This document shows, in pieces, positions 2,799-45,432 of a DNA stretch of 64,000 bases. Both the position numbers and the translations under genes were made by a program. Location of the stretch: the NCBI GenBank assembly GCA_000724175.1, contig JPGV01000018.1:15647-79646 (forward strand), in the 5' to 3' direction. The stretch's first letter is position 1; each line of letters starts with the position of its first letter. A model generated the notes under the pieces. That model was not told the DNA's origin. It saw nothing but the letters and a program-made list of their open reading frames with translations, and ran no database searches. The stretch is from [Candidatus Thermochlorobacteriaceae] bacterium GBChlB. Its GTDB lineage: Bacteria > Bacteroidota > Chlorobiia > Chlorobiales > Thermochlorobacteraceae.

Positions 2799-4229
2799 TC
2801 AGAAGCGGTCTCCGAATTGCGTTGGCGTGACGAACTCCGATTCAAATCGGACGCCGAAGTGATACGCAAAGGCTTTGACATGCGGAATTTCGCGTGCGAA
2901 ATCTTCAACGTCCTCGAGGTCGGTATGCACAGGGTCTTTGGAAACCGTGGTGTCGTGCAAAAAGAGCTCCGCGTTTGAAAACCATTCCGACGATTGAACC
3001 TCGTAAGCGGCTTTGTCTATCGAGCCGTTTTGCAGGCGCGCGTCGAGCAGGCGCTTCGAGTAGAGCGTGTCGCCAGAGACGCCGATGGTGCGCCCGTTGT
3101 AGCTCAAGCGAAATCCAATGGTAGGAATCGGGTGGTAGTTCTCTCGAATGTCAATCGTGCAACCGTGATAATTTTGAAATTTCTCGCGGTCGTTGAGGTC
3201 ATGAAAATCAATATTTCCTGTAATGTCGCCGAAGATGGGATTAAAAATCGTTTGAAGTTGGGCGTAAATCGCAGGCGTGCTGAGTAAGTTTAGCCGTTCA
3301 TCGCGGTCGAGTTTGCGTTGAAAGAGCGCGCTGAATCCCTCAATATGGTCTTCGTGGCAGTGTGTAATCATAAAGTCGGTGGCATAGTCGGGATTGACGC
3401 CGAGTTGCGCGGCTTTTTCGTAGAAGCGCGCGGGTGGGTCGACCCACACCAATCGGTTGCCATAGAAGAAAATAAAATTGCTGGTTACGCCCGGCTTCGT
3501 GCCGATGCCGTTGCCACCGACAATAAGTCCTAATTTTTCGCCATCGAACTTTAACGGCTCGACTTGCGAGAGCAGCATATCTACATAAAGCGAACCGGTT
3601 TTGCCGCCGTTGCTGACGGGATACTGTGCCGAATCGAACACTAATTTTTGCTTGTCGTAAATTTTAACGCCGTCGGGATTTGAGACATCGAGTCGGACTT
3701 GTCCAAGTTCAACCACATCAGATGAGGCATGCCATTCAAAGACGTCGTCGACCCACCGGCGCGACACAAATTTGGCTTGGCGATTGCCGAGCTCATCGTG
3801 GACGAAATCGCCATTCATCGTCAGTTCCAAGCGTTGATAGAGCGAGCGCAGGAACGGCTCTTGTCCGATGAACTTTATTTTGTGCGGACGAGCATAGTCG
3901 ATAAAGCGCGATGTCCAAAGCTCAAACTCGTAGCCCGTTTGTGTATCGCCAAGTTGAGTTACAACGGGCGCAGTCACGCAGGCAGCAACCGGCAGTTTTC
4001 TTAATTGCGGAAAATACGTTTTGAAGAGTTCGGGAACGGTATTGACCTGAATAAGCCCGGCGGAGGTTTCGACCAGATAGGCGCAGAGCGATAAATCTGA
4101 CCCGCCAACGCGATAGACGCCGTTTCCATACGTGTAGAAGTTGCTTGACACGCGCTTCGGTGCTTTTGCAACAGGGTGCATAGCGAGGTAAATCCTTTCT
4201 TCTGTGGTTAAACTGCTCATCATCGTCAA
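2799..4229 (-). CDS. MBL-fold metallo-hydrolase with a ~230-aa N-terminal extension
   Basis: 476-aa ORF. The metallo-beta-lactamase HxHxDH motif is present as ITHCHEDHIEGF, with downstream GDT and HD motifs. Confidence 0.7.
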   Translation of the reverse strand: MTMMSSLTTEERIYLAMHPVAKAPKRVSSNFYTYGNGVYRVGGSDLSLCAYLVETSAGLIQVNTVPELFKTYFPQLRKLPVAACVTAPVVTQLGDTQTGYEFELWTSRFIDYARPHKIKFIGQEPFLRSLYQRLELTMNGDFVHDELGNRQAKFVSRRWVDDVFEWHASSDVVELGQVRLDVSNPDGVKIYDKQKLVFDSAQYPVSNGGKTGSLYVDMLLSQVEPLKFDGEKLGLIVGGNGIGTKPGVTSNFIFFYGNRLVWVDPPARFYEKAAQLGVNPDYATDFMITHCHEDHIEGFSALFQRKLDRDERLNLLSTPAIYAQLQTIFNPIFGDITGNIDFHDLNDREKFQNYHGCTIDIRENYHPIPTIGFRLSYNGRTIGVSGDTLYSKRLLDARLQNGSIDKAAYEVQSSEWFSNAELFLHDTTVSKDPVHTDLEDVEDFAREIPHVKAFAYHFGVRFESEFVTPTQFGDRF

Positions 4230-5773: not shown

Positions 5774-5846
5774 CGCTCTGCGAGCACAAAAACTTGACAA
5801 AACGTTAAACTCGAAACGACCGAAAAACTTTTATCTTTGGTCGTCC

Positions 5847-5892
5847 AGCGTTTTCCAGCGCGTAGTTTCAAGCGTTTTCCAGCACGTAGTTT
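5847..5892 (+). repeat. Two tandem copies of a 22-nt unit (agcgttttccagcRcgtagttt, period 24)
   Basis: 5847-5868 and 5871-5892 differ at one position. They lie in the lptB / sensor-phosphatase intergenic region. Confidence 0.8.
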
Positions 5893-5910
5893 TTAATCCT
5901 GATTCATTAA

Positions 5911-5940
5911 TCCTGAACAACCTTGAACAACCTTGAACAA
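5911..5940 (+). repeat. Three tandem 10-nt units (ccttgaacaa x2 plus a degenerate tcctgaacaa) ending 2 nt before the ATG at 5943
   Basis: Read directly: tcctgaacaa ccttgaacaa ccttgaacaa ca ATG. In addition, aatcctga occurs twice (5895-5902 and 5909-5916). Confidence 0.85.
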
Positions 5941-5942
5941 CA

Positions 5943-8900
5943 ATGCGTAACTTGTGCCTGACCATCTTGTTGTGCTTACATTACCTAATCCTTGCCACTG
6001 TCGCTTTTGCGCAAGACCCGAAAGATTTAAAATTCGATAAATATTCAACCGACCAAGGGCTGTCGCAAAGCAACATCACAGCCATCGTTCAAGACAAGAT
6101 GGGCTTTGTTTGGCTTGGCACAACAGACGGGCTGAACCGCTTCGACGGCTACAACTTCACCGTGTTCGTCAACGACCCGCAAGTGCCGACCTCAATTTCA
6201 AGCAACGCCATTCAAGCCTTGTGTATTGACCGAAGCGGTGTATTGTGGGTTGGCACGCAGTCTGGGCTTTGTCGCACGACCGATGGCGGACTTAGCTTCG
6301 AGCGCTTGAAAGGCGAGCAAAATGCCACACTGCACAACGACAACATCACGGCAATTTTCGAGGAGAAGTCTGGCAACATACTCATTGGCACACAAGGCGG
6401 GCTTTACAAAACAAGCGACGGCGGCAAGAGCTTCAAGCAAATCGGCAATGATGCCCGCAAAGGCGCCAGCCTCGTTAGCGACGTCATTACAGCGATTACG
6501 GCGGATAACAACGGCGTTCTTTGGGTCGGCACCTTCGGCGGCGGCGTGGCAAAATCAACCGATGGCGGACAAACTTTCACATCGTTTCAACACAATCCCG
6601 ACAACGCCAAAACCATCAGCAGCGATACGATTACGGGCATTGCTATTGACAAAAAAAACCGCGTTTGGATTACCACCTTCGGCGGCGGCTTGAACGGACT
6701 TTACCCGAACCGAAAGGACTTCGACCGGCTGCGACACAGCCTCAATCGCTCCGACGACGATATGATGACCTCGATATGCCTTGCCAACGACGAGAACCTG
6801 TGGATAGGCTCGGTCGGTCGGCTCTGGCGGTATAATCCAAACTCTAAAAAAGAGCCTTGGCGAAACTATACCGTTGCACGTGGTTTGAGCGACAATCACA
6901 TCACGGTGGTCTATCAAGACAAAGCCGGGCTTATTTGGGCAGGAACATTCGGCGGCGGCGTCAATATCACTGACCCGTATGGCTCGGCAAAATTTGACTA
7001 TGTGATTGTCAAGCGGCGCAACCCGCGCGACGACCGATTCTACAACGAAGACGTCTCTGCTGTTTGGGAAGAAGGCACAGACAAGGACGGCTATCCGATA
7101 TTGCTTGTCGGCACAACGAGCAACGGGCTGTTTCGCGTCTATAAAAATATCTTGAGCCGTCTGCCGATTGAAGAGGCAAAAGCGGCTGCGCCCGCTGCTG
7201 GCAAAGGCAAAAAATCAAAACCCGTCAAGCGCAAAGCCAAACCCGCCAAGCAAGGCAAAAAAGTTGAGGCCAAAAAAAGTGAACGCACGCTCAGCAGTAA
7301 CTCTGTATCGGTGCTCCTGCGCGATAAGTCGGGCGTGCTGTGGGTCGGCACGGATAACGGACTCAACTACTACGACACGACCGATGGCAGAGGCTTTGCC
7401 GTCTTCAAATCGACGTCGGACAATCCGAAAAGTTTGAACGACAATTTCATCACGGCGCTGTGCGAAGACAAGTCGGGCAACCTGTGGGTTGGCACGAAAA
7501 ACGGATTGCATAAGCTCGCCAAGGCGAACCGCTACGATACCACAAAGGGTGGGCAGTTTGCGCTGTTCAAGACGGCGAGCGGGCTGTCGAGCAACGACAT
7601 CACGGTGCTGTTCGAAGACAAATCGGGCGCGCTCTGGATTGGCACGCGCGACGCAGGACTTTGCCGCACCACCGACGGCGGCGCGACCTTCACCAAATTC
7701 ACTGCCAGCCCACAAGGGTTGACGAACAACACCATCACGTCGATTTGTCAGGATAAAAAAGGCGCGATTTGGGTGAGCATCTTAGGCGGCGGACTCTGTC
7801 GCACGGTCGATAACGGCGCGACCTTCACGCCGTTCCGCGAGCGCGACGGGCTTGCCAGCGATGTAGTCTTTGGCGCCGTTGCCGATGAAGACGGAAATCT
7901 CTGGCTCAAAACGCGCAAAGGCATCACGAAATTCTCGCCGCCTAACGACGTAGCTGCCAAAGACCGCAAAGGCGGCTTGTTCCGCAACTATGATAAACGC
8001 GACGGGCTTTTGGTCAGGCAGTTCGACGCCGGCGGCTACCATATTGGCGCATCAGGGGCAATTTATTTCGGCGGCTTGGGCGTTGTGCATACGTTTTACC
8101 CTGAAGATTTGAAGGACAACGATGATGCGTTTGTGCCCCCCGTTGTTATCACTGGGCTGACGAAGTTCGACGGCACACAATTTACGCGCGACAGCAGCAT
8201 TATCATCAAAAAAGACATTGAACTGGCGCCAAAAGATTATCTATTCACAGTCGAGTTCTCCGCGCTCTCGTATTACTTGCAGGAAAAAAATCAGTATCAA
8301 TACAAGCTCGAGGGCTTCGATAAAATTTGGGTCGACGCACGGAAAGGTCAGCACGAAGCCACCTATACCAATATCGAGCCCGGAAAATATGTCTTTCGCG
8401 TGAAAGCCGCTGGACCAGACGGCATTTGGAACGAAGAAGGCGCATCGCTGACGGTCGATATCGTGCCGCCATTGTGGAAACGCTTGTGGTTTCAGGTGTT
8501 GGCGTTTCTCTCTGGCGTTGGCTTGATTGTCGGCCTGACCTCGTTCACGCAGCAACAGCGCATCAAGCGTATTGAGCGTCAAAAGGAAGAACTGGAATTT
8601 CAAGTGCAGGCGCGAACCAAAGACCTCGCCGAAAGCAACCTGAAATTGGAACAAACCAACAAGAGCTTAGCCGAGAGCAAAAAGCAACTCGAGGAAAGTA
8701 ATCAGGAAATTTTGGAGAAAAATAGAGAGATTACGTCGAGCATTGAATACGCCAAAACCATTCAACTTGCGCTCCTCCCGAGCCGCGACCGCCTGAAACG
8801 TGCTTTGCTCGAATACTTTATTTTGTATCGACCAAAGGATATTGTATCGGGCGATTTTTATTGGCTGCATGAGACAACCGACAAAGTGATTTTTGTTGTA

Positions 8901-9503
8901 GCGGATTGCACAGGACACGGTGTGCCGGGCGCCTTCATGTCGATGATTGGTGAATCGCTGTTGGGTCAACTCGTTATTGAGAAGAACATCTCCAACCCTG
9001 CGCATATCCTCAATGAGATGCACAAGAATGTGCGTCAGGCGCTCAACCAAACCGATGAAATTGGAAGCGGACAAGATGGTATGGATATGGGTGTGTGCGT
9101 CATTTACAAAAGCGCAGAACTCGGCGGCACAAAGCGCGTGTGCTACGCGGGCGCGCGCCGGCCGCTCTACTACGTGAATGCGGGGAACGGCGAGTTTCAC
9201 GAAGTCAAAGGCGACAAATTTTCCATTGGCGGCTGGCAACGCGAAAGCGACCGAAAATACACCGCGCACGACCTCAATATCGAAATCGGCTCAATGCTTT
9301 ATATGACAACCGACGGCTACGCCGACCAACCCGACGCACAAATGCGCGTCTTCGCTGCCAAACGCCTGCGCGAATTTTTGAAGAACATCGCACTCGACAA
9401 AACTGAACGCCAGTTCAAACTATTGGAATCGGAACTCGAAAAGCATCAAGGGTCGGAGCCGCAGCGCGACGACATCACCGTAGTAGGAATCCGCGTCATA
9501 TAG
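5943..9503 (+). CDS. Sensor protein phosphatase (SiaA-like role): signal peptide, two beta-propeller repeat blocks, Y_Y_Y-type region, TM helix, coiled coil and SpoIIE/PP2C domain
   Basis: 1186 aa with many regulator-propeller blades (ITAIVQDKMGFVWLGTTDGLNRFDG and similar). One TM helix is present (LWFQVLAFLSGVGLIVGLTSF). The SpoIIE/PP2C motifs are SGDFYWL, VADCTGHGVPGAFMSMIG and TDGYADQ. Confidence 0.85.
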   Translation: MRNLCLTILLCLHYLILATVAFAQDPKDLKFDKYSTDQGLSQSNITAIVQDKMGFVWLGTTDGLNRFDGYNFTVFVNDPQVPTSISSNAIQALCIDRSGVLWVGTQSGLCRTTDGGLSFERLKGEQNATLHNDNITAIFEEKSGNILIGTQGGLYKTSDGGKSFKQIGNDARKGASLVSDVITAITADNNGVLWVGTFGGGVAKSTDGGQTFTSFQHNPDNAKTISSDTITGIAIDKKNRVWITTFGGGLNGLYPNRKDFDRLRHSLNRSDDDMMTSICLANDENLWIGSVGRLWRYNPNSKKEPWRNYTVARGLSDNHITVVYQDKAGLIWAGTFGGGVNITDPYGSAKFDYVIVKRRNPRDDRFYNEDVSAVWEEGTDKDGYPILLVGTTSNGLFRVYKNILSRLPIEEAKAAAPAAGKGKKSKPVKRKAKPAKQGKKVEAKKSERTLSSNSVSVLLRDKSGVLWVGTDNGLNYYDTTDGRGFAVFKSTSDNPKSLNDNFITALCEDKSGNLWVGTKNGLHKLAKANRYDTTKGGQFALFKTASGLSSNDITVLFEDKSGALWIGTRDAGLCRTTDGGATFTKFTASPQGLTNNTITSICQDKKGAIWVSILGGGLCRTVDNGATFTPFRERDGLASDVVFGAVADEDGNLWLKTRKGITKFSPPNDVAAKDRKGGLFRNYDKRDGLLVRQFDAGGYHIGASGAIYFGGLGVVHTFYPEDLKDNDDAFVPPVVITGLTKFDGTQFTRDSSIIIKKDIELAPKDYLFTVEFSALSYYLQEKNQYQYKLEGFDKIWVDARKGQHEATYTNIEPGKYVFRVKAAGPDGIWNEEGASLTVDIVPPLWKRLWFQVLAFLSGVGLIVGLTSFTQQQRIKRIERQKEELEFQVQARTKDLAESNLKLEQTNKSLAESKKQLEESNQEILEKNREITSSIEYAKTIQLALLPSRDRLKRALLEYFILYRPKDIVSGDFYWLHETTDKVIFVVADCTGHGVPGAFMSMIGESLLGQLVIEKNISNPAHILNEMHKNVRQALNQTDEIGSGQDGMDMGVCVIYKSAELGGTKRVCYAGARRPLYYVNAGNGEFHEVKGDKFSIGGWQRESDRKYTAHDLNIEIGSMLYMTTDGYADQPDAQMRVFAAKRLREFLKNIALDKTERQFKLLESELEKHQGSEPQRDDITVVGIRVI

Positions 9504-9566
9504 AATGGAGACAAGCAAAAAAAGTCTTATGTTTGCGCGATTGTCGTTAATAAAGCCGAAACCTCA

Positions 9567-10127
9567 ATGACAACGTCGGAGACAGGCAATGCCGAAATTT
9601 TTGAGCTGTATCGATACACGTCGGCAGCGCGCATTTTGATGACCTTCAAGGGCGCGTTCTCGCAGGAACTGCTCGTCGAATTGGGCGACATCATCAAAAA
9701 GCAACACGGCGATGGCAACGACGTGCGAAAAATGTTCTCTGTCTTTGTGGAAATGGCGCAGAACATTCTCTACTACTCGGCGGAAAAAGAAACGCGCCGC
9801 AGCGACGGCAAAGAGGTCGGCGTCGGCATCGTGCTTATCCGCGATATGGACAAGTATTTTTGCATTACCTCGGGCAATCAAATCGAGAAGGAGCGCGGCG
9901 AAAAAATTTACGCCCGTTGTGAAGAACTTGCTGCGCTCGGCAAAGAAGACTTAAAAGCCCTGTATCACGAGCGACGGCAGTCGCAAGCGCCAGAAGGCAG
10001 CAAAGGCGCAGGATTAGGGCTTATTGATATGATGCGCAAATCGGACGCGCCGCCGAACTTTGAACTTCGCGCCATTGACGAACACTTGTCGTTTTTCATT
10101 CTTAACATCATGATTCAAAAAGTATGA
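9567..10127 (+). CDS. SiaB-family small GHKL-type protein kinase (anti-sigma-kinase-like)
   Basis: 186 aa with an ATP-lid G-box (SKGAGLGLIDMMRKS). Its stop overlaps the next start (ATGA at 10124-10127). It sits between a PP2C gene and a DUF1987 gene. Confidence 0.7.
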   Translation: MTTSETGNAEIFELYRYTSAARILMTFKGAFSQELLVELGDIIKKQHGDGNDVRKMFSVFVEMAQNILYYSAEKETRRSDGKEVGVGIVLIRDMDKYFCITSGNQIEKERGEKIYARCEELAALGKEDLKALYHERRQSQAPEGSKGAGLGLIDMMRKSDAPPNFELRAIDEHLSFFILNIMIQKV

Positions 10128-10501
10128 ACAACCTAAGCGTTAATCCTACCAAAACCACCCCTCAAATTTCGTTCAACGCGGACAGCGGCGTGCTGGAAGT
10201 GTCTGGACAATCCTATCCTGAATCTGCCGTCGAGTTCTATCAGCCAATTATGGACTGGCTGAACCAGTTTTTCTCCAACTCCACTAAACAAGTCGAGTTG
10301 AACTTTAAGTTGAACTACTTTAACACGAGTTCTTCAAAGTGCATTCTGAACATCTTGCGGCTCTTTGAAAAAGCACATGCGGAGGGCAAGCCCGTTAAAG
10401 TCAACTGGTATCACCACGAAGCAGACGAGCAAATGCAAGAAACGGGCGAAGAGTTCGCCGAACACCTGACCATGCCGTTCAAAGTGATTTCGTTCAAATA
10501 A
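10124..10501 (+). CDS. DUF1987 (SiaC-family) partner-switch protein
   Basis: 125 aa with the pattern ISFNADSGVLEVSGQSYPE...FYQPIMDWL...LNFKLNYFNTSSSKCILNIL. Thr68 lies in the conserved FNTSS motif (codon 10325-10327). Confidence 0.75.
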   Translation: MNNLSVNPTKTTPQISFNADSGVLEVSGQSYPESAVEFYQPIMDWLNQFFSNSTKQVELNFKLNYFNTSSSKCILNILRLFEKAHAEGKPVKVNWYHHEADEQMQETGEEFAEHLTMPFKVISFK

Positions 10502-10545
10502 CAAGCCACGCTGCACGACGGCATCCGAAGTCAACACATTTGATA

Positions 10546-11376
10546 ATGAAAAAAGAAAACCTTGACCGAATGAGCGCGATGAAGCGCGTTCAAGCGCGGC
10601 TGAATCTGGACGGAAAAACCGTGATGAAAACCAACAAGAAGCAGAAACAGAGCGAAGAGTACGAAAAAATCTTCAAACATGAATTGGACGTCGCAACCCA
10701 CGCCGCCAAGATGTTAGAGGACAATACGCTTAAAAAAGATGAATGGAAATCCGAATATGAAGCGCTGCTCAAAGAGTATAAAGCGCTCCTGCGCCAAGCC
10801 ATGAAGATGACCAAAATCGGCGACGGCACGCAGCAAAAATTGCTCAAAACACAAGAAGAACTCGCGCTCGCCAACGAAAAATTAGAACGACAAGCCGTAA
10901 CCGACGCGCTGACCGGCCTCTACAACCGACGCTACTTGGACGCCAAACTCGCCGATGCCTTCGAGACCGCCAAGCGCGACCACCAGCCACTTGCAGTCTC
11001 CATTAACGACATCGACTTCTTCAAAAAAATCAACGACCGATTCTCGCATCAAACCGGAGATGATGTGCTGCGCATCGTGGCAAAACTGCTGCGCGAGAGC
11101 GTCCGCAATGGCACAACCGTCGCTCGATACGGCGGCGAAGAATTTGTCATGGTCTTTCCCAACACGGATTTACACACAGCGGTCGCTGAGTGCGAAAAAG
11201 TCCGCAAAGCCATTGAGTCTTACGACTGGAAAACAGTGCATCTCGACCTTGCAGTAACGATTAGCATGGGCGTGTGTGCTGACCTCTCGCACGCGAACAG
11301 CGAAAAGTTTCTCTCTGCGGCTGACGAAAAACTCTACGAAGCCAAACACAACGGCAGAAATCAAGTGCGGTTCTGA
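10546..11376 (+). CDS. Diguanylate cyclase (coiled coil + GGDEF; SiaD-like position)
   Basis: GGDEF domain motifs: DALTGLYNRRYL, DIDFFKKINDRFSHQTGD, RYGGEEFVMVFP and LYEAKHNGRNQV. ATG at 10546 is preferred over the TTG at 10540. Confidence 0.85.
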   Translation: MKKENLDRMSAMKRVQARLNLDGKTVMKTNKKQKQSEEYEKIFKHELDVATHAAKMLEDNTLKKDEWKSEYEALLKEYKALLRQAMKMTKIGDGTQQKLLKTQEELALANEKLERQAVTDALTGLYNRRYLDAKLADAFETAKRDHQPLAVSINDIDFFKKINDRFSHQTGDDVLRIVAKLLRESVRNGTTVARYGGEEFVMVFPNTDLHTAVAECEKVRKAIESYDWKTVHLDLAVTISMGVCADLSHANSEKFLSAADEKLYEAKHNGRNQVRF

Positions 11377-11464: not shown

Positions 11465-12007
11465 ATGGAATGGTTCAAGAGCCTCCTCGGAATTGCCTCC
11501 GATGTTGAAGCGGTCTATTGGATTTTGGCGATTACCTCCACCGCGCTCTTCCTTTTGAAAATTTTCTTCAACTTTGGCGATGAGCATGAAGGGGATGACG
11601 TGGTATCGCTCTCCTCAATCCTCTCATTTTTGAAAGTTGGCGCATGGATGGGGGTGTTATGTTTTCGGCTGACAGATTTTTCGGTATGGACAATCTTGTT
11701 GGTTACACTCCTCTCTGGCAGCATTGGGTTTATTGGAGCGGTCTGGATTCTGCGTCGGGTGCGCGGTCTGGAATCCTCTGGCACTCTCACGCTTGAAAAC
11801 GCTGTTGGGAAAATTGGAACCGTGTATTACAACTTACCCAAAGACAAAAACGATGTCGGGCAAATTCAAGTCGAGGTGCAGGGGCGGCTGGCGACGCTCA
11901 ATGCCAAGAGCGATGGCGTTGAAATCAAAACCGGCAGTAAAGTCTTCGTGTATGGCGTAGAGAACGGCGCTTTGCTCGTCGAGCCGCATTCGGGCGACGA
12001 AAACTAA
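11465..12007 (+). CDS. NfeD-like membrane protein (OB-fold C-terminus)
   Basis: 180 aa with N-terminal TM helices and a C-terminal beta-rich segment (GKIGTVYYNL...GQIQVEVQGRLATLNAKS...KVFVYGVENGALLVEP). It lies directly upstream of a flotillin gene, the classic NfeD-SPFH pairing. Confidence 0.65.
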   Translation: MEWFKSLLGIASDVEAVYWILAITSTALFLLKIFFNFGDEHEGDDVVSLSSILSFLKVGAWMGVLCFRLTDFSVWTILLVTLLSGSIGFIGAVWILRRVRGLESSGTLTLENAVGKIGTVYYNLPKDKNDVGQIQVEVQGRLATLNAKSDGVEIKTGSKVFVYGVENGALLVEPHSGDEN

Positions 12008-12056
12008 CTTCAAACCCAAAATTTTACACAACAACTACCCTTCAGGAGAACCACCA

Positions 12057-13613
12057 ATGGAAGCCTTTATCAAATTCCTAACGACCTCATTTGGTCTTGT
12101 TTTCGTCGCGTTTATCTTGCTGGTGGCGGCAGCGTTGCGCTACTACAAGCGGTGTCCGTCGAATAAAATTTTGGTGATTTACGGACGGGTCAGCGGCGGC
12201 AAAAGTGCAAAGTGTATTCACGGCGGCGGCAGTATTGTCATTCCGCTCATTCAGGATTCGCAGTATATGAGTTTGCAGCCAATCCCGATTGAAATAAAAC
12301 TCACCGGCGCGCTCTCTCAGCAAAATATCCGCGTTAATACACCAAGCACATTCACAGTGGCGATTTCGACCGAAGAGAACATTATGCTCAACGCTGCTGA
12401 ACGCCTGCTTGGGCTGACGACGGAGCAAATCGCCCTGCAAGCCGAAGAAATTATCTTAGGACAGTTGCGGCTCGTGATTGCCACATTGACGATTGAAGAA
12501 ATCAACCGCGACCGCGAGACCTTCTTGAAAAAAATCAACCAAAACGTTGCCACTGAGCTGCACAAAGTCGGTCTTGATTTAATCAATGTTAATATCCGCG
12601 ACATCACTGACGAGTCGGGATACATTGAAGCCATCGGAAAAAAATCGGCTGCCGAAGCCATCAACAAAGCCCGCGTCGAGGTCGCCGAGCAAGAACGCAT
12701 TGGCTCAATTGGTGTTGCCAAAGCCACGCGCGAGAAGGAAGTGCAAGTGGCGTTAGAAACTGCCGAGACCGAGAAAGGTAAGCGCGAAGCCGAAAAGAAT
12801 CAACGGATTGCGACCGCGCTGTTGGAGACCGAAGGCGCGACGGCGGAAGCAAAGTCAATGCGCGAAAAAGACGTCGAGGTTGCCAACCAACTTGCCGAAG
12901 CGGAAATCGGAAAGAAACGCGCCGAAGCGCAAAAGAGAACTGCCACTGCCGAATCAGAAGCGCTTGCGGTCGAGGGCGAAAACATCGCTAAAATTCGCGC
13001 CGCCGAATCCAATGCACTGCTCGCCGAAAAAAATGCGCTGGCGTTTCAGCGCAGCGAAGTCGCTAGAGCGCAAGCCGATACCGAAGTCTTGAAGGCGCAA
13101 CGCGAGCGTGAATCGGCAAAGTTGCAAAAAGAAGAACTCGTCAAACAGGAAATTGAGAAACTCAAAATTCAAGTCGATGCCGAAGCCGCAGCGGAGCGCA
13201 CGCGCGCGATTGCCAAAGGTGAAGCCGACGCCACTCTCGCTAAATATCAAGCCGAAGCCGAGGGCTTGAAAAAGTTGCTCGAAGCCAAAGCAGATGGATA
13301 CAAAGAAATCATCAACGCCTGCCAAAGCGACCCGAAAGTTGCCGCCACGCTGCTTATGATTGAAAAAATTGAAACGCTCGTCGAAAAACAAGTCGAGGCG
13401 ATTTCGAAAATCAAAATTGATAAAATCACCGTTTGGGATTCAGGCTCGAGCAACGGCGAGGGCAGCTCGACCTCGAATTTCATCAAGAGTTTCATCACCT
13501 CGCTGCCGCCGCTGCAAGAAATCGCCAAGCAAAGCGGCGTCGAACTGCCTGCCTATCTTGGCACCTTGGCAGAGACCAACGAAAAACCGCATATCGACAG
13601 CACCAAAAAGTAA
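12057..13613 (+). CDS. Flotillin-family SPFH/Band-7 protein (YqiK-like)
   Basis: 518 aa with an N-terminal membrane anchor and an SPFH domain. A long Ala/Glu-rich flotillin coiled coil follows (EAEKNQRIATALLETEGATAEAKS...AEAEGLKKLLEAKADGYKEII). Confidence 0.8.
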   Translation: MEAFIKFLTTSFGLVFVAFILLVAAALRYYKRCPSNKILVIYGRVSGGKSAKCIHGGGSIVIPLIQDSQYMSLQPIPIEIKLTGALSQQNIRVNTPSTFTVAISTEENIMLNAAERLLGLTTEQIALQAEEIILGQLRLVIATLTIEEINRDRETFLKKINQNVATELHKVGLDLINVNIRDITDESGYIEAIGKKSAAEAINKARVEVAEQERIGSIGVAKATREKEVQVALETAETEKGKREAEKNQRIATALLETEGATAEAKSMREKDVEVANQLAEAEIGKKRAEAQKRTATAESEALAVEGENIAKIRAAESNALLAEKNALAFQRSEVARAQADTEVLKAQRERESAKLQKEELVKQEIEKLKIQVDAEAAAERTRAIAKGEADATLAKYQAEAEGLKKLLEAKADGYKEIINACQSDPKVAATLLMIEKIETLVEKQVEAISKIKIDKITVWDSGSSNGEGSSTSNFIKSFITSLPPLQEIAKQSGVELPAYLGTLAETNEKPHIDSTKK

Positions 13614-45353: not shown

Positions 45354-45360
45354 CGGGTTG

Positions 45361-45432
45361 CTCCGCGAGCAGGATTCGAACCTGCGACCCATCGGTTAAC
45401 AGCCGATTGCTCTACCGCTGAGCTATCGCGGA
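45361..45432 (-). tRNA. tRNA-Asn (anticodon GTT)
   Basis: The minus strand reads TCCGCGATAGCTCAGCGGTAGAGCAATCGGCTGTTAACCGATGGGTCGCAGGTTCGAATCCTGCTCGCGGAG. The 7-bp acceptor stem, D arm, anticodon arm (CT-GTT-AA loop) and T arm (GTTCGAATC) all pair. CCA is not encoded. Confidence 0.95.

Follow-up and report, generated by a model that had tools for sequence, protein, structure and literature searches.

A SiaABCD-like gene set with a beta-propeller/Y_Y_Y sensor phosphatase in a Chlorobiota-type bacterium: a putative Ser/Thr partner switch for c-di-GMP synthesis

Introduction

Can a Ser/Thr partner switch of the SiaABCD type, which in Pseudomonas controls the synthesis of cyclic di-GMP (c-di-GMP), be run by a wholly different periplasmic sensor in a bacterium outside Proteobacteria? 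The question is raised by four genes in a 64,000-nucleotide (nt) stretch of contig JPGV01000018.1 from Candidatus Thermochlorobacteriaceae bacterium GBChlB, which was analyzed as a whole and is called the window below. Between positions 5943 and 11376, the window holds four intact open reading frames (ORFs) in the same direction (+ strand). Gene 1 (5943 to 9503, as given in the ORF listing) encodes a membrane-anchored sensor Ser/Thr phosphatase of 1186 amino acids (aa); gene 2 (9567 to 10127) a SiaB-family, GHKL-like Ser/Thr kinase of 186 aa; gene 3 (10124 to 10501), whose start overlaps the stop of gene 2 in an ATGA, a SiaC-family phosphoprotein of 125 aa; and gene 4 (10624 to 11376) a stalked diguanylate cyclase of 250 aa. 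An initial annotation, made from the letters of the sequence, had described four co-directional genes here, and all four ORFs are where it placed them.

SiaABCD, known only from Pseudomonas, is, to our knowledge, the sole experimentally dissected case of a diguanylate cyclase being activated by a SiaC/DUF1987 protein. We consider it likely that the four genes of the window make up one SiaABCD-type Ser/Thr partner switch that sets c-di-GMP synthesis.

Results

Switch protein, kinase, and phosphatase

The locus has the same A-B-C-D order as the siaABCD genes of Pseudomonas aeruginosa (PA0172 to PA0169, locus L088), which are likewise co-directional, and its products are 32% (SiaA, PP2C domain plus linker), 30% (SiaB), 36% (SiaC), and 33% (SiaD) identical to their counterparts. 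The gene-for-gene match to SiaA/B/C/D that had been proposed thus agrees in families and in order, with all four proteins scoring below the NCBIfam equivalog level; judged by sequence, the set is best described as a divergent relative of SiaABCD (30 to 36% identity), not as a set of orthologs. The likeness extends to individual residues, since the SiaA catalytic motifs, the SiaC T68 with its NTSS loop, and a single, putative docking motif of the SiaD type are present.

Profile hidden Markov models place the ORF at 9567 to 10127 in the SiaB family and the ORF at 10124 to 10501 in the SiaC/DUF1987 family, as anticipated for both. Gene 3 matches the Pfam family SiaC (PF09345, formerly DUF1987) with 159 bits and scores 123.9 bits against the SiaC equivalog model NF038265, whose cutoff of 150 is not reached. 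Its residues 1 to 121 align without a gap to the P. aeruginosa SiaC structures (PDB 6kko_C and 6k4f, E = 5e-26), so that Thr68 in YFNTSSSK (ACG codon at 10325 to 10327, + strand), the predicted phospho-acceptor, is the positional homolog of Thr68 in YLNTSSIK of SiaC. In P. aeruginosa, mass spectrometry mapped the phospho-site to this residue, to which SiaB adds the phosphate and from which SiaA-PP2C removes it (PMC7647112). The homology of the two threonines, which the initial annotation had suspected from the shared residue number, is therefore borne out by the alignment. The SiaC contact residues Y31, Y65, N67, T68, S69, and E110 are conserved in gene 3 and the NTSS loop is intact; SiaC proteins found independently, by way of phosphatase loci and free of bias from an NTSS search pattern, have Thr or Ser at the position equivalent to 68.

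The assignment of gene 2 as a SiaB-family, GHKL-type kinase is supported by Pfam, by an NCBIfam subfamily model, and by a solved structure. It matches Pfam DUF6272 with 131 bits and passes the NCBIfam model SiaB_fam_kinase (NF038262; 169.8 bits, cutoff 85) but fails the SiaB equivalog model NF038264 (112.9 bits, cutoff 225), and it is therefore a member of the family that is not ortholog-grade. It aligns to SiaB (PDB 6kko_A, E = 6e-20) with a conserved GAGLGL box, and Glu62 in its EMAQNI motif corresponds to the SiaB residue named Glu61 and described as catalytic (PMC7647112).

The catalytic half of gene 1 completes the set. Its PP2C/SpoIIE phosphatase domain (aa 946 to 1186; 8778 to 9500, + strand) matches the SiaA-PP2C structure 6k4e with an E value of 6e-39, and the C-terminal 280 residues align with that construct end to end, including the helix that precedes the domain. 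The motifs GDFY, DCTGHGVPGA, TDGYADQ, and RDDITV coincide with D457, D474/G477, D600/G601, and D653 of SiaA, its conserved metal-binding residues (PMC7647112). The NCBIfam SiaA model NF038263 covers only aa 912 to 1185 of gene 1 (model positions 393 to 657) and gives 204.8 bits (E = 2e-60), below its equivalog cutoff of 700 bits.

The cyclase stalk and its putative docking motif

Does gene 4 carry the features by which SiaC acts on SiaD? The answer depends partly on where the protein begins. In the ORF listing gene 4 starts at TTG 10540, and from the upstream ATG at 10546 the frame to 11376 would encode 276 aa. The start is most likely the ATG at 10624, giving 250 aa, because that Met is where the L002 (248 aa) and L008 (247 aa) orthologs begin to align and because the public annotation of a 99%-identical contig has a protein of 250 aa. 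The distance between genes 3 and 4 would then be 122 nt and not 44 nt. Of the tight spacing that had been reported, the 63 nt between genes 1 and 2 and the -4 nt (ATGA) between genes 2 and 3, both read off the sequence, stand, and the 44-nt gap most likely falls.

Gene 4 encodes, as had been stated, a coiled-coil GGDEF cyclase with an intact GGEEF. It matches Pfam GGDEF with 148 bits, its aa 47 to 250 are 33% identical to SiaD residues 63 to 259, and it gives 172 bits with the SiaD equivalog model NF038266 (cutoff 290, not reached). In an alignment of six SiaC-linked cyclases (A2: the window, L002, L008, L025, L011, and P. aeruginosa SiaD), the active-site motif GGEEF (aa 170 to 174; 11131 to 11145, + strand) is invariant, as are D129, D131, K134, N137, D138, R168, K241, and G244.

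Direct comparison with the siaABCD locus of P. aeruginosa also brought out a putative SiaC-docking motif in the stalk. KIGDGTQQKL (aa 64 to 73 in the 250-aa numbering; 10813 to 10842, + strand) corresponds to RISDRYQQMM of SiaD and aligns to its residues R80-I81-S82-D83-R84-Y85-Q86. Two positions, D67 and Q70, equivalent to D83 and Q86 of SiaD, are invariant in 6/6 SiaC-linked cyclases. The SiaD stalk itself has two near-identical motifs, RLERIARISDGFQSM and RLEKVARISDRYQQM. In the crystal complex, S82 and Q86 of the second motif hydrogen-bond SiaC T68, a residue lodged between the stalk helices of SiaD; phosphorylation prevents binding (PMC8457831).

The distance from the motif to DxLTG, at the start of the GGDEF domain, is 21 residues in P. 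aeruginosa, 28 in the window, L002, and L008, 35 in an unclassified metagenome-assembled genome (MAG; L025), and 42 in a Chloracidobacterium MAG (L011). The spacing between motif and GGDEF domain is a multiple of seven in all six cyclases, and the helical phase between docking site and catalytic domain is therefore preserved even where the length of the stalk differs. By our own estimate, the chance that three independent lineages would all differ from P. aeruginosa by whole heptads is approximately (1/7)^3. This conservation of motif and register is the main new support for the docking of SiaC on the gene 4 cyclase, which we infer from it, and one motif per stalk would imply a SiaC2:cyclase2 stoichiometry.

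One regulatory feature of the cyclase has changed. The I-site RxxD, five residues upstream of GGDEF, is optional in the family and present in SiaD; in gene 4 it is degenerate in the alignment (RNGT, aa 161 to 164; 11104 to 11115, + strand), whereas relatives retain it as RSSD, RAKD, RAGD, RKQD, and REYD (the Thermochlorobacter orthologs, the two other SiaC-linked cyclases, and P. aeruginosa SiaD). Product feedback inhibition may thus have been lost in the lineage of the window.

A propeller/Y_Y_Y sensor as the input

What does the phosphatase listen to? The architecture initially described for gene 1, namely, a signal peptide, two propeller blocks, a Y_Y_Y region, one transmembrane (TM) helix, a coiled coil, and SpoIIE/PP2C, is recovered by Pfam and by inspection of the sequence. 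Above curated Pfam thresholds, which the Pfam matches of genes 2 to 4 given above pass as well, gene 1 has Reg_prop in 8 stretches (184 bits), Y_Y_Y (68 bits), and SpoIIE (71 bits, aa 980 to 1185). By their E values, such matches are not expected by chance. A signal peptide is predicted at aa 1 to 23 (5943 to 6011, + strand) from a hydropathy peak at aa 2 to 24 and an AxA motif, with cleavage placed at VAFA/QD. It is followed by a first beta-propeller block at approximately aa 30 to 400 (6030 to 7142, +), with Reg_prop repeats, blade motifs of the form [LIV]W[LIV]G[TS] at aa 56, 101, 193, 286, and 331, and approximate boundaries, and by a second block at approximately aa 455 to 770 (7305 to 8252, +), with blade motifs at aa 466, 514, and 564. 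The best PDB alignment of the second propeller pairs aa 494 to 847 with residues 446 to 786 of the BT4663 sensor chain. The Ig-like Y_Y_Y domain (PF07495, 68.4 bits, profile positions 1 to 64 of 65) lies at aa 776 to 840 (8268 to 8462, +).

The periplasmic part as a whole resembles sensor domains whose structures are solved for Bacteroides hybrid two-component systems (HTCSs), with an E value of 2e-89 for 4a2l and further matches to 3v9f and 3ott, in keeping with the HTCS-type periplasmic sensor named in the initial annotation. The glycan ligand that it considered possible has no support beyond this domain homology, and no SusC/SusD-type polysaccharide utilization locus adjoins gene 1 in the stretch examined. 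Between the propellers lies a low-complexity insert rich in Lys and Ala (aa 405 to 452; 7155 to 7298, +; 13 Lys in 48 residues), and the orthologs in L002 and L008 have a Lys-rich insert of different sequence at the same place. The insert might bind an anionic polymer or serve as a flexible hinge. By analogy with HTCSs, a glycan is a possible ligand; judging from the insert, an anionic polymer of the envelope or matrix could equally be one.

A single TM helix at aa 850 to 870 (FQVLAFLSGVGLIVGLTSF; 8490 to 8552, +) is the sole internal hydropathy peak above 1.6, no HAMP domain is found in gene 1 by Pfam, and a cytoplasmic coiled-coil linker identified by heptad scan (aa 872 to 945; 8556 to 8777, +) leads to the PP2C domain. 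The "a" positions of the linker are uniformly hydrophobic (IKVLLLLIIAL) and the "d" positions mostly polar, and from approximately aa 909 onward its last ~45 residues align to the helix preceding PP2C in the SiaA crystal construct. This pattern resembles, by analogy, the marginally stable linkers of PMC12143880. The input of P. aeruginosa SiaA is built differently: a TM segment, ~290 extracytoplasmic residues, a second TM segment, and HAMP, so that its description as a small HAMP-type input, made in the initial annotation, does not hold. For the SiaA sensor domain, the reported stimulus is membrane perturbation (PMC12834913), and the signal at the gene 1 input is therefore presumably a different one.

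Distribution of the arrangement

How widespread is this combination? The A-B-C-D order recurs in L001, a contig of the NCBI MAG GCA_053496335.1 that is 99% identical to the window; in L002, a metagenomic contig; and in L008, Candidatus Thermochlorobacter aerophilum, the closest named relative. L002 and L008 are approximately 50% identical to the window in the sensor phosphatase, 58% in B, 73% in C, and 60% in D. These two are 83% identical to each other and are therefore counted as one lineage, so that the operon is present in two lineages, held together in Candidatus Thermochlorobacter even as the sensor has diverged by half. An LptB-like ABC ATPase gene lies upstream both in the window and in L002, for which a neighbor annotation is present; downstream, the window has NfeD/flotillin where L002 and L008 have other genes, and the module is therefore bounded at four genes. 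The DNA runs that contain the locus are hot-spring and microbial-mat metagenomes.

Beyond these close relatives, two surveys addressed the parts of the module. Both are biased, in that they take the 80 matches most similar to the query, retrieve them in part by pattern, and include truncated contigs, and the fractions given here are indicative only. The SiaC survey, with one genome per species and an NTSS search pattern, found at least 592 SiaC-encoding stretches, the best 80 of which were used; nearly all of these are from Bacteroidota, with others from Chlorobiota, Ignavibacteriota, and Kapaibacteria and one from a Chloracidobacterium. SiaB is directly upstream of SiaC in 73/80 of these best loci. 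Among the 54 that are well flanked (at least 5 kb upstream and at least 3 kb downstream), a PP2C gene is nearby in 7, a propeller-PP2C gene in 5, a GGDEF gene in 3, and the full set of four in one (L008). The second survey took 80 metagenomic propeller-PP2C loci, of which 6 adjoin SiaB and/or SiaC; a GGDEF neighbor is lacking in all 80. The four-gene arrangement is thus rare and lineage restricted. The propeller/Y_Y_Y/SpoIIE architecture is itself very common, with dozens among the top 120 matches, under the Joint Genome Institute name "ligand-binding sensor domain / serine phosphatase RsbU," and it confers no rarity on the locus of the window. In Bacteroidota and Chlorobiota, both building blocks, the propeller-PP2C proteins and the SiaB-SiaC pairs, are abundant and as a rule unlinked.

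Where they are linked, the arrangements vary. A propeller-PP2C gene adjoins SiaB/SiaC in about a dozen further loci (L003, L018, L046, L054, L061, L096, L109, L122, L147, L156, and L157). In locus L109 (2 to 16289), one SiaB-SiaC pair is surrounded by four SpoIIE phosphatases in the same direction, of which three contain Reg_prop/Y_Y_Y; L003 has two propeller-PP2C paralogs beside a divergent pair; and L007 is a tandem array of at least 4 propeller-PP2C paralogs. Arrays of 2 to 4 propeller/Y_Y_Y SpoIIE paralogs, with or without PAS/GAF, are seen in L109, L007, L003, and L018, and in L109, L003, and L018 they flank a single SiaB-SiaC pair, a hint that several sensors may feed into one switch protein. 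Extra copies of the switch genes also occur, as two SiaB-SiaC pairs in L058 and an additional SiaC ~4 to 5 kb away in each of L072 and L077; in L046 (9992 to 11351), a SiaC gene is followed by a frame matching SiaB plus SiaC, perhaps a fusion, perhaps a stop-to-stop artifact.

A further context is that of the Bacteroidales pair (L026, L027, L064, and ~45 other loci), which has guaA, an S41 peptidase, pnuC, an AAA_28 gene, and either rlmL or a hexapeptide transferase upstream and a convergent ABC-ABC2 fusion of ~1030 aa downstream. No phosphatase or cyclase is near these Bacteroidales loci, and no output gene is apparent there. The conserved neighbors were considered as functional partners and rejected, being housekeeping genes whose synteny reflects shared ancestry.

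Is the cyclase really the target?

The surveys bear on the most serious alternative, that SiaB and SiaC form a general hub for a target other than c-di-GMP and that the GGDEF gene beside them in the window is secondary or incidental. SiaB accompanies SiaC almost everywhere, yet any GGDEF gene does so in just 3 of the 54 well-flanked loci, which also counts against the proposed switch and means that a cyclase is not the general target of the SiaC clade; the pair of Bacteroidales sits among housekeeping genes; and the 80 propeller-PP2C loci are devoid of GGDEF neighbors. For the window itself, however, an incidental cyclase appears unlikely. A GGDEF gene stands beside SiaB/SiaC in three independent lineages and in three gene orders: as in the window and Thermochlorobacter, as SiaC-GGDEF-SiaB in the Chloracidobacterium MAG (L011, 9806 to 11861), and as GGDEF-SiaB-SiaC in the unclassified MAG (L025, 8672 to 10372), the latter two with no adjacent phosphatase. 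The cyclases of all three have a stalk motif of the SiaD type, in heptad register with the GGDEF domain, a finding that would be difficult to account for without docking of SiaC at this site.

If the cyclase is the target, could the logic be reversed, so that SiaC or phospho-SiaC inhibits it, or the ligand turns the phosphatase off, and the signal lowers c-di-GMP? Nothing computed here fixes the sign of any step, the stalk, with its single motif, exceeds that of P. aeruginosa SiaD by one heptad, and loss of the RxxD I-site means that regulation differs in detail. Against this, the T68/NTSS loop and the stalk D and Q, which in P. aeruginosa make docking sensitive to phosphorylation, are conserved, so that the same polarity is the simplest expectation and a reversal has only a small chance of being correct.

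It is very improbable that gene 1 senses the envelope or a glycan independently of the switch, with its PP2C directed at some other substrate (for example, a STAS anti-sigma antagonist encoded elsewhere), and that its place here is a coincidence: 74 of the 80 propeller/Y_Y_Y-PP2C loci, and also L004 to L007, have no SiaB/SiaC neighbor and are often tandem paralog arrays, but SiaA is both the best solved-structure match of this PP2C and the top-scoring NCBIfam model for gene 1, gene 1 is co-directional with gene 2 across the 63-nt gap in an order conserved at ~50% sensor identity, about a dozen independent loci, L109 among them, likewise place such a gene beside SiaB/SiaC, and no STAS or RsbW-type genes are among the Pfam-annotated neighbors in the loci where neighbors are listed.

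Several further observations weigh against a SiaABCD-type switch at this locus. All four proteins stay below the NCBIfam equivalog cutoffs of the respective SiaA to SiaD models, and with the start at 10624 a gap of 122 nt precedes gene 4. The gene 4 stalk has one docking motif where SiaD has two (S50/Q54 and S82/Q86), and Ser82 of SiaD, which contacts T68, is a Gly in gene 4. Peripheral salt-bridge residues are altered on both partners (D79R, R103Q, and D114H relative to SiaC, and R74Q relative to SiaD). A PDB search with the stalk alone (gene 4 aa 1 to 130) gave no significant similarity to SiaD, and the confidence of an AlphaFold model computed from the gene 4 sequence alone (pLDDT 46.5, pTM 0.30) was too low for use. 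Finally, a search for RNA runs with the locus returned none.

Surroundings of the operon

Tandem repeats lie directly upstream of the gene 1 ATG (5844 to 5941). A 24-bp unit is present 1.9 times (AGCGTTTTCCAGCACGTAGTTTCA, 95% match, 5847 to 5892), and a perfect 10-bp unit 2.8 times (TGAACAACCT, 5914 to 5941), ending at the start codon of gene 1. By eye, no comparable repeats are upstream of the orthologs in L002 and L008. The repeats may be a regulatory site or a product of replication slippage. A promoter and terminator scan gave matches no more often than in shuffled sequence and is uninformative for an organism that does not follow the sigma-70 consensus; on the + strand, the terminator scan placed none between the four genes and none directly after gene 4.

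Downstream, at 11465 to 13613, follow co-directional genes for an NfeD-like membrane protein of 180 aa and a flotillin/SPFH protein of 518 aa (FloT-like, 146 bits). They were considered as members of the module and rejected, because the operons of L002 and L008 are not followed by them. Their adjacency is curious in view of the membrane perturbation sensing reported for SiaA (PMC12834913); the linkage is not conserved. On the other side, approximately 1.7 kb upstream of the operon and on the - strand (~2831 to 4213), is a gene for a 460-aa protein of the metallo-beta-lactamase fold, matching Pfam Anti-Pycsar_Apyc1 and Lactamase_B_2, a family of cyclic-nucleotide phosphodiesterases. L002 has the gene in the corresponding position, where L008 has an equally long ORF.

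The rest of the 64-kb window holds no paralogs of the four genes. An Rfam scan of the window found no c-di-GMP riboswitch; the sole Rfam/ARAGORN match is a tRNA-Asn (GTT) at 45360 to 45432 (-).

Discussion

How might such a switch work? In the mechanism we propose, the gene 2 kinase would phosphorylate Thr68 of the gene 3 SiaC-family protein, and the PP2C domain of gene 1 would take the phosphate off again. Unphosphorylated SiaC would dock, via its NTSS loop, on KIGDGTQQKL of the cyclase stalk and stabilize the active GGDEF dimer, raising c-di-GMP; phospho-SiaC would be unable to dock, leaving the cyclase off. The periplasmic double propeller with Y_Y_Y would control the phosphatase through one TM helix and a coiled coil of ~70 residues, without HAMP, where ligand binding or a rearrangement of the sensor dimer would probably alter the state of the coiled-coil/PP2C dimer and hence phosphatase activity. 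The directions of the reactions, the role of SiaC as an activator of the cyclase, and the sign of the sensor effect are what we infer here in addition to the homologies described above. The step from sensor to PP2C would be in line, by analogy, with the model of linker-mediated PPM dimers and with the exchange of sensor domains on PPM phosphatases proposed as a general principle (PMC12143880).

Compared with SiaABCD, there are differences at both ends of the pathway. The input is a signal peptide, two propellers, Y_Y_Y, one TM helix, and a long coiled coil in place of the two TM segments and HAMP of SiaA. At the output, the cyclase stalk is one heptad longer than that of SiaD, with one motif for two and Gly for Ser82, and the I-site is degenerate, unlike the RxxD of P. 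aeruginosa SiaD. The hosts are also different, a Chlorobiota-type hot-spring bacterium and a proteobacterium.

With the glycan sensors of Bacteroides HTCSs (BT4663, 4a2l/4a2m; 3v9f; 3ott/3va6), gene 1 shares Reg_prop propellers, Y_Y_Y, and then a TM helix, at E values of 2e-89 to 1e-34. Its output, however, is PP2C, with no HisKA, HATPase_c, REC, or AraC-type helix-turn-helix domain by Pfam, and only the sensor module is shared; the gene 1 protein is therefore not an HTCS. It further differs from HTCSs in the Lys-rich insert between its propellers and in the lack of an adjacent SusC/SusD-type locus.

Partner switches that act on cyclases are also known with STAS proteins, namely, HptB-HsbR-HsbA-HsbD of P. 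aeruginosa and BgrSTUWV-BgrR of Sinorhizobium, in which, according to PMC8457831, the partner (HsbD or BgrR) is a cyclase. These switches and RsbU/RsbV/RsbW follow the same logic as proposed here: a small alpha/beta protein exchanges its binding partner according to its phosphorylation state, which depends on a PP2C phosphatase and a GHKL-type kinase. They share with the system of the window the control of PPM phosphatases by coiled-coil linkers (PMC12143880). The difference is in the components, as the switch protein of the window is of the SiaC/DUF1987 family and not a canonical Pfam STAS protein, and its kinase is of the DUF6272/SiaB type and not of the RsbW type. In Campylobacterota, modules of a periplasmic-sensor PP2C, a kinase, a STAS protein, and a c-di-GMP enzyme have been predicted and likened to SiaABCD (PMC9239204). 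The predicted wiring is the same and has its support from gene neighborhood only (PMC9239204); the phylum, sensor domain, and switch-protein family are different, and a propeller/Y_Y_Y input is not described in that work.

In full-text literature searches, we found no description of a propeller/Y_Y_Y-PP2C protein paired with SiaB/SiaC and none of a SiaABCD-type module in Chlorobiota or Bacteroidota. As far as sequence can tell, the operation would be SiaABCD-like, with the same families for B, C, and D and for the catalytic half of A, and what appears new is the input module and the simplified stalk. The same SiaABCD core would thus be at work outside Proteobacteria behind a wholly different periplasmic sensor whose structure is well understood. 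Such a natural domain swap may help to show how extracytoplasmic sensors drive PPM phosphatases via coiled-coil linkers. The single-motif stalk would be a simpler system in which to study the activation of a cyclase by SiaC, and the heptad-locked docking motif is a concrete, testable structural prediction. Practical importance is modest pending a ligand and a phenotype.

DUF1987 proteins are widespread and have been suggested to modulate adjacent proteins (PMC8457831). What, then, is the target of SiaC in the abundant SiaB-SiaC pairs of Bacteroidota, most of which have no cyclase nearby? The output in the window is encoded within the operon, which makes this locus the easiest entry point to what looks like a large SiaB/SiaC and propeller-phosphatase network in the Fibrobacteres-Chlorobi-Bacteroidetes group. 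We tentatively envisage a large Ser/Thr partner-switch network in Bacteroidota and Chlorobiota, a possibility that we hold with less than even confidence, in which many propeller/Y_Y_Y PP2C proteins, with or without PAS/GAF, might report different extracytoplasmic cues to one SiaB/SiaC hub, the hub driving a cyclase in the Chlorobiota-type lineage and another target in the GGDEF-poor Bacteroidales. If true, such a network would be a second signaling route that runs parallel to HTCSs and uses the same sensor fold.

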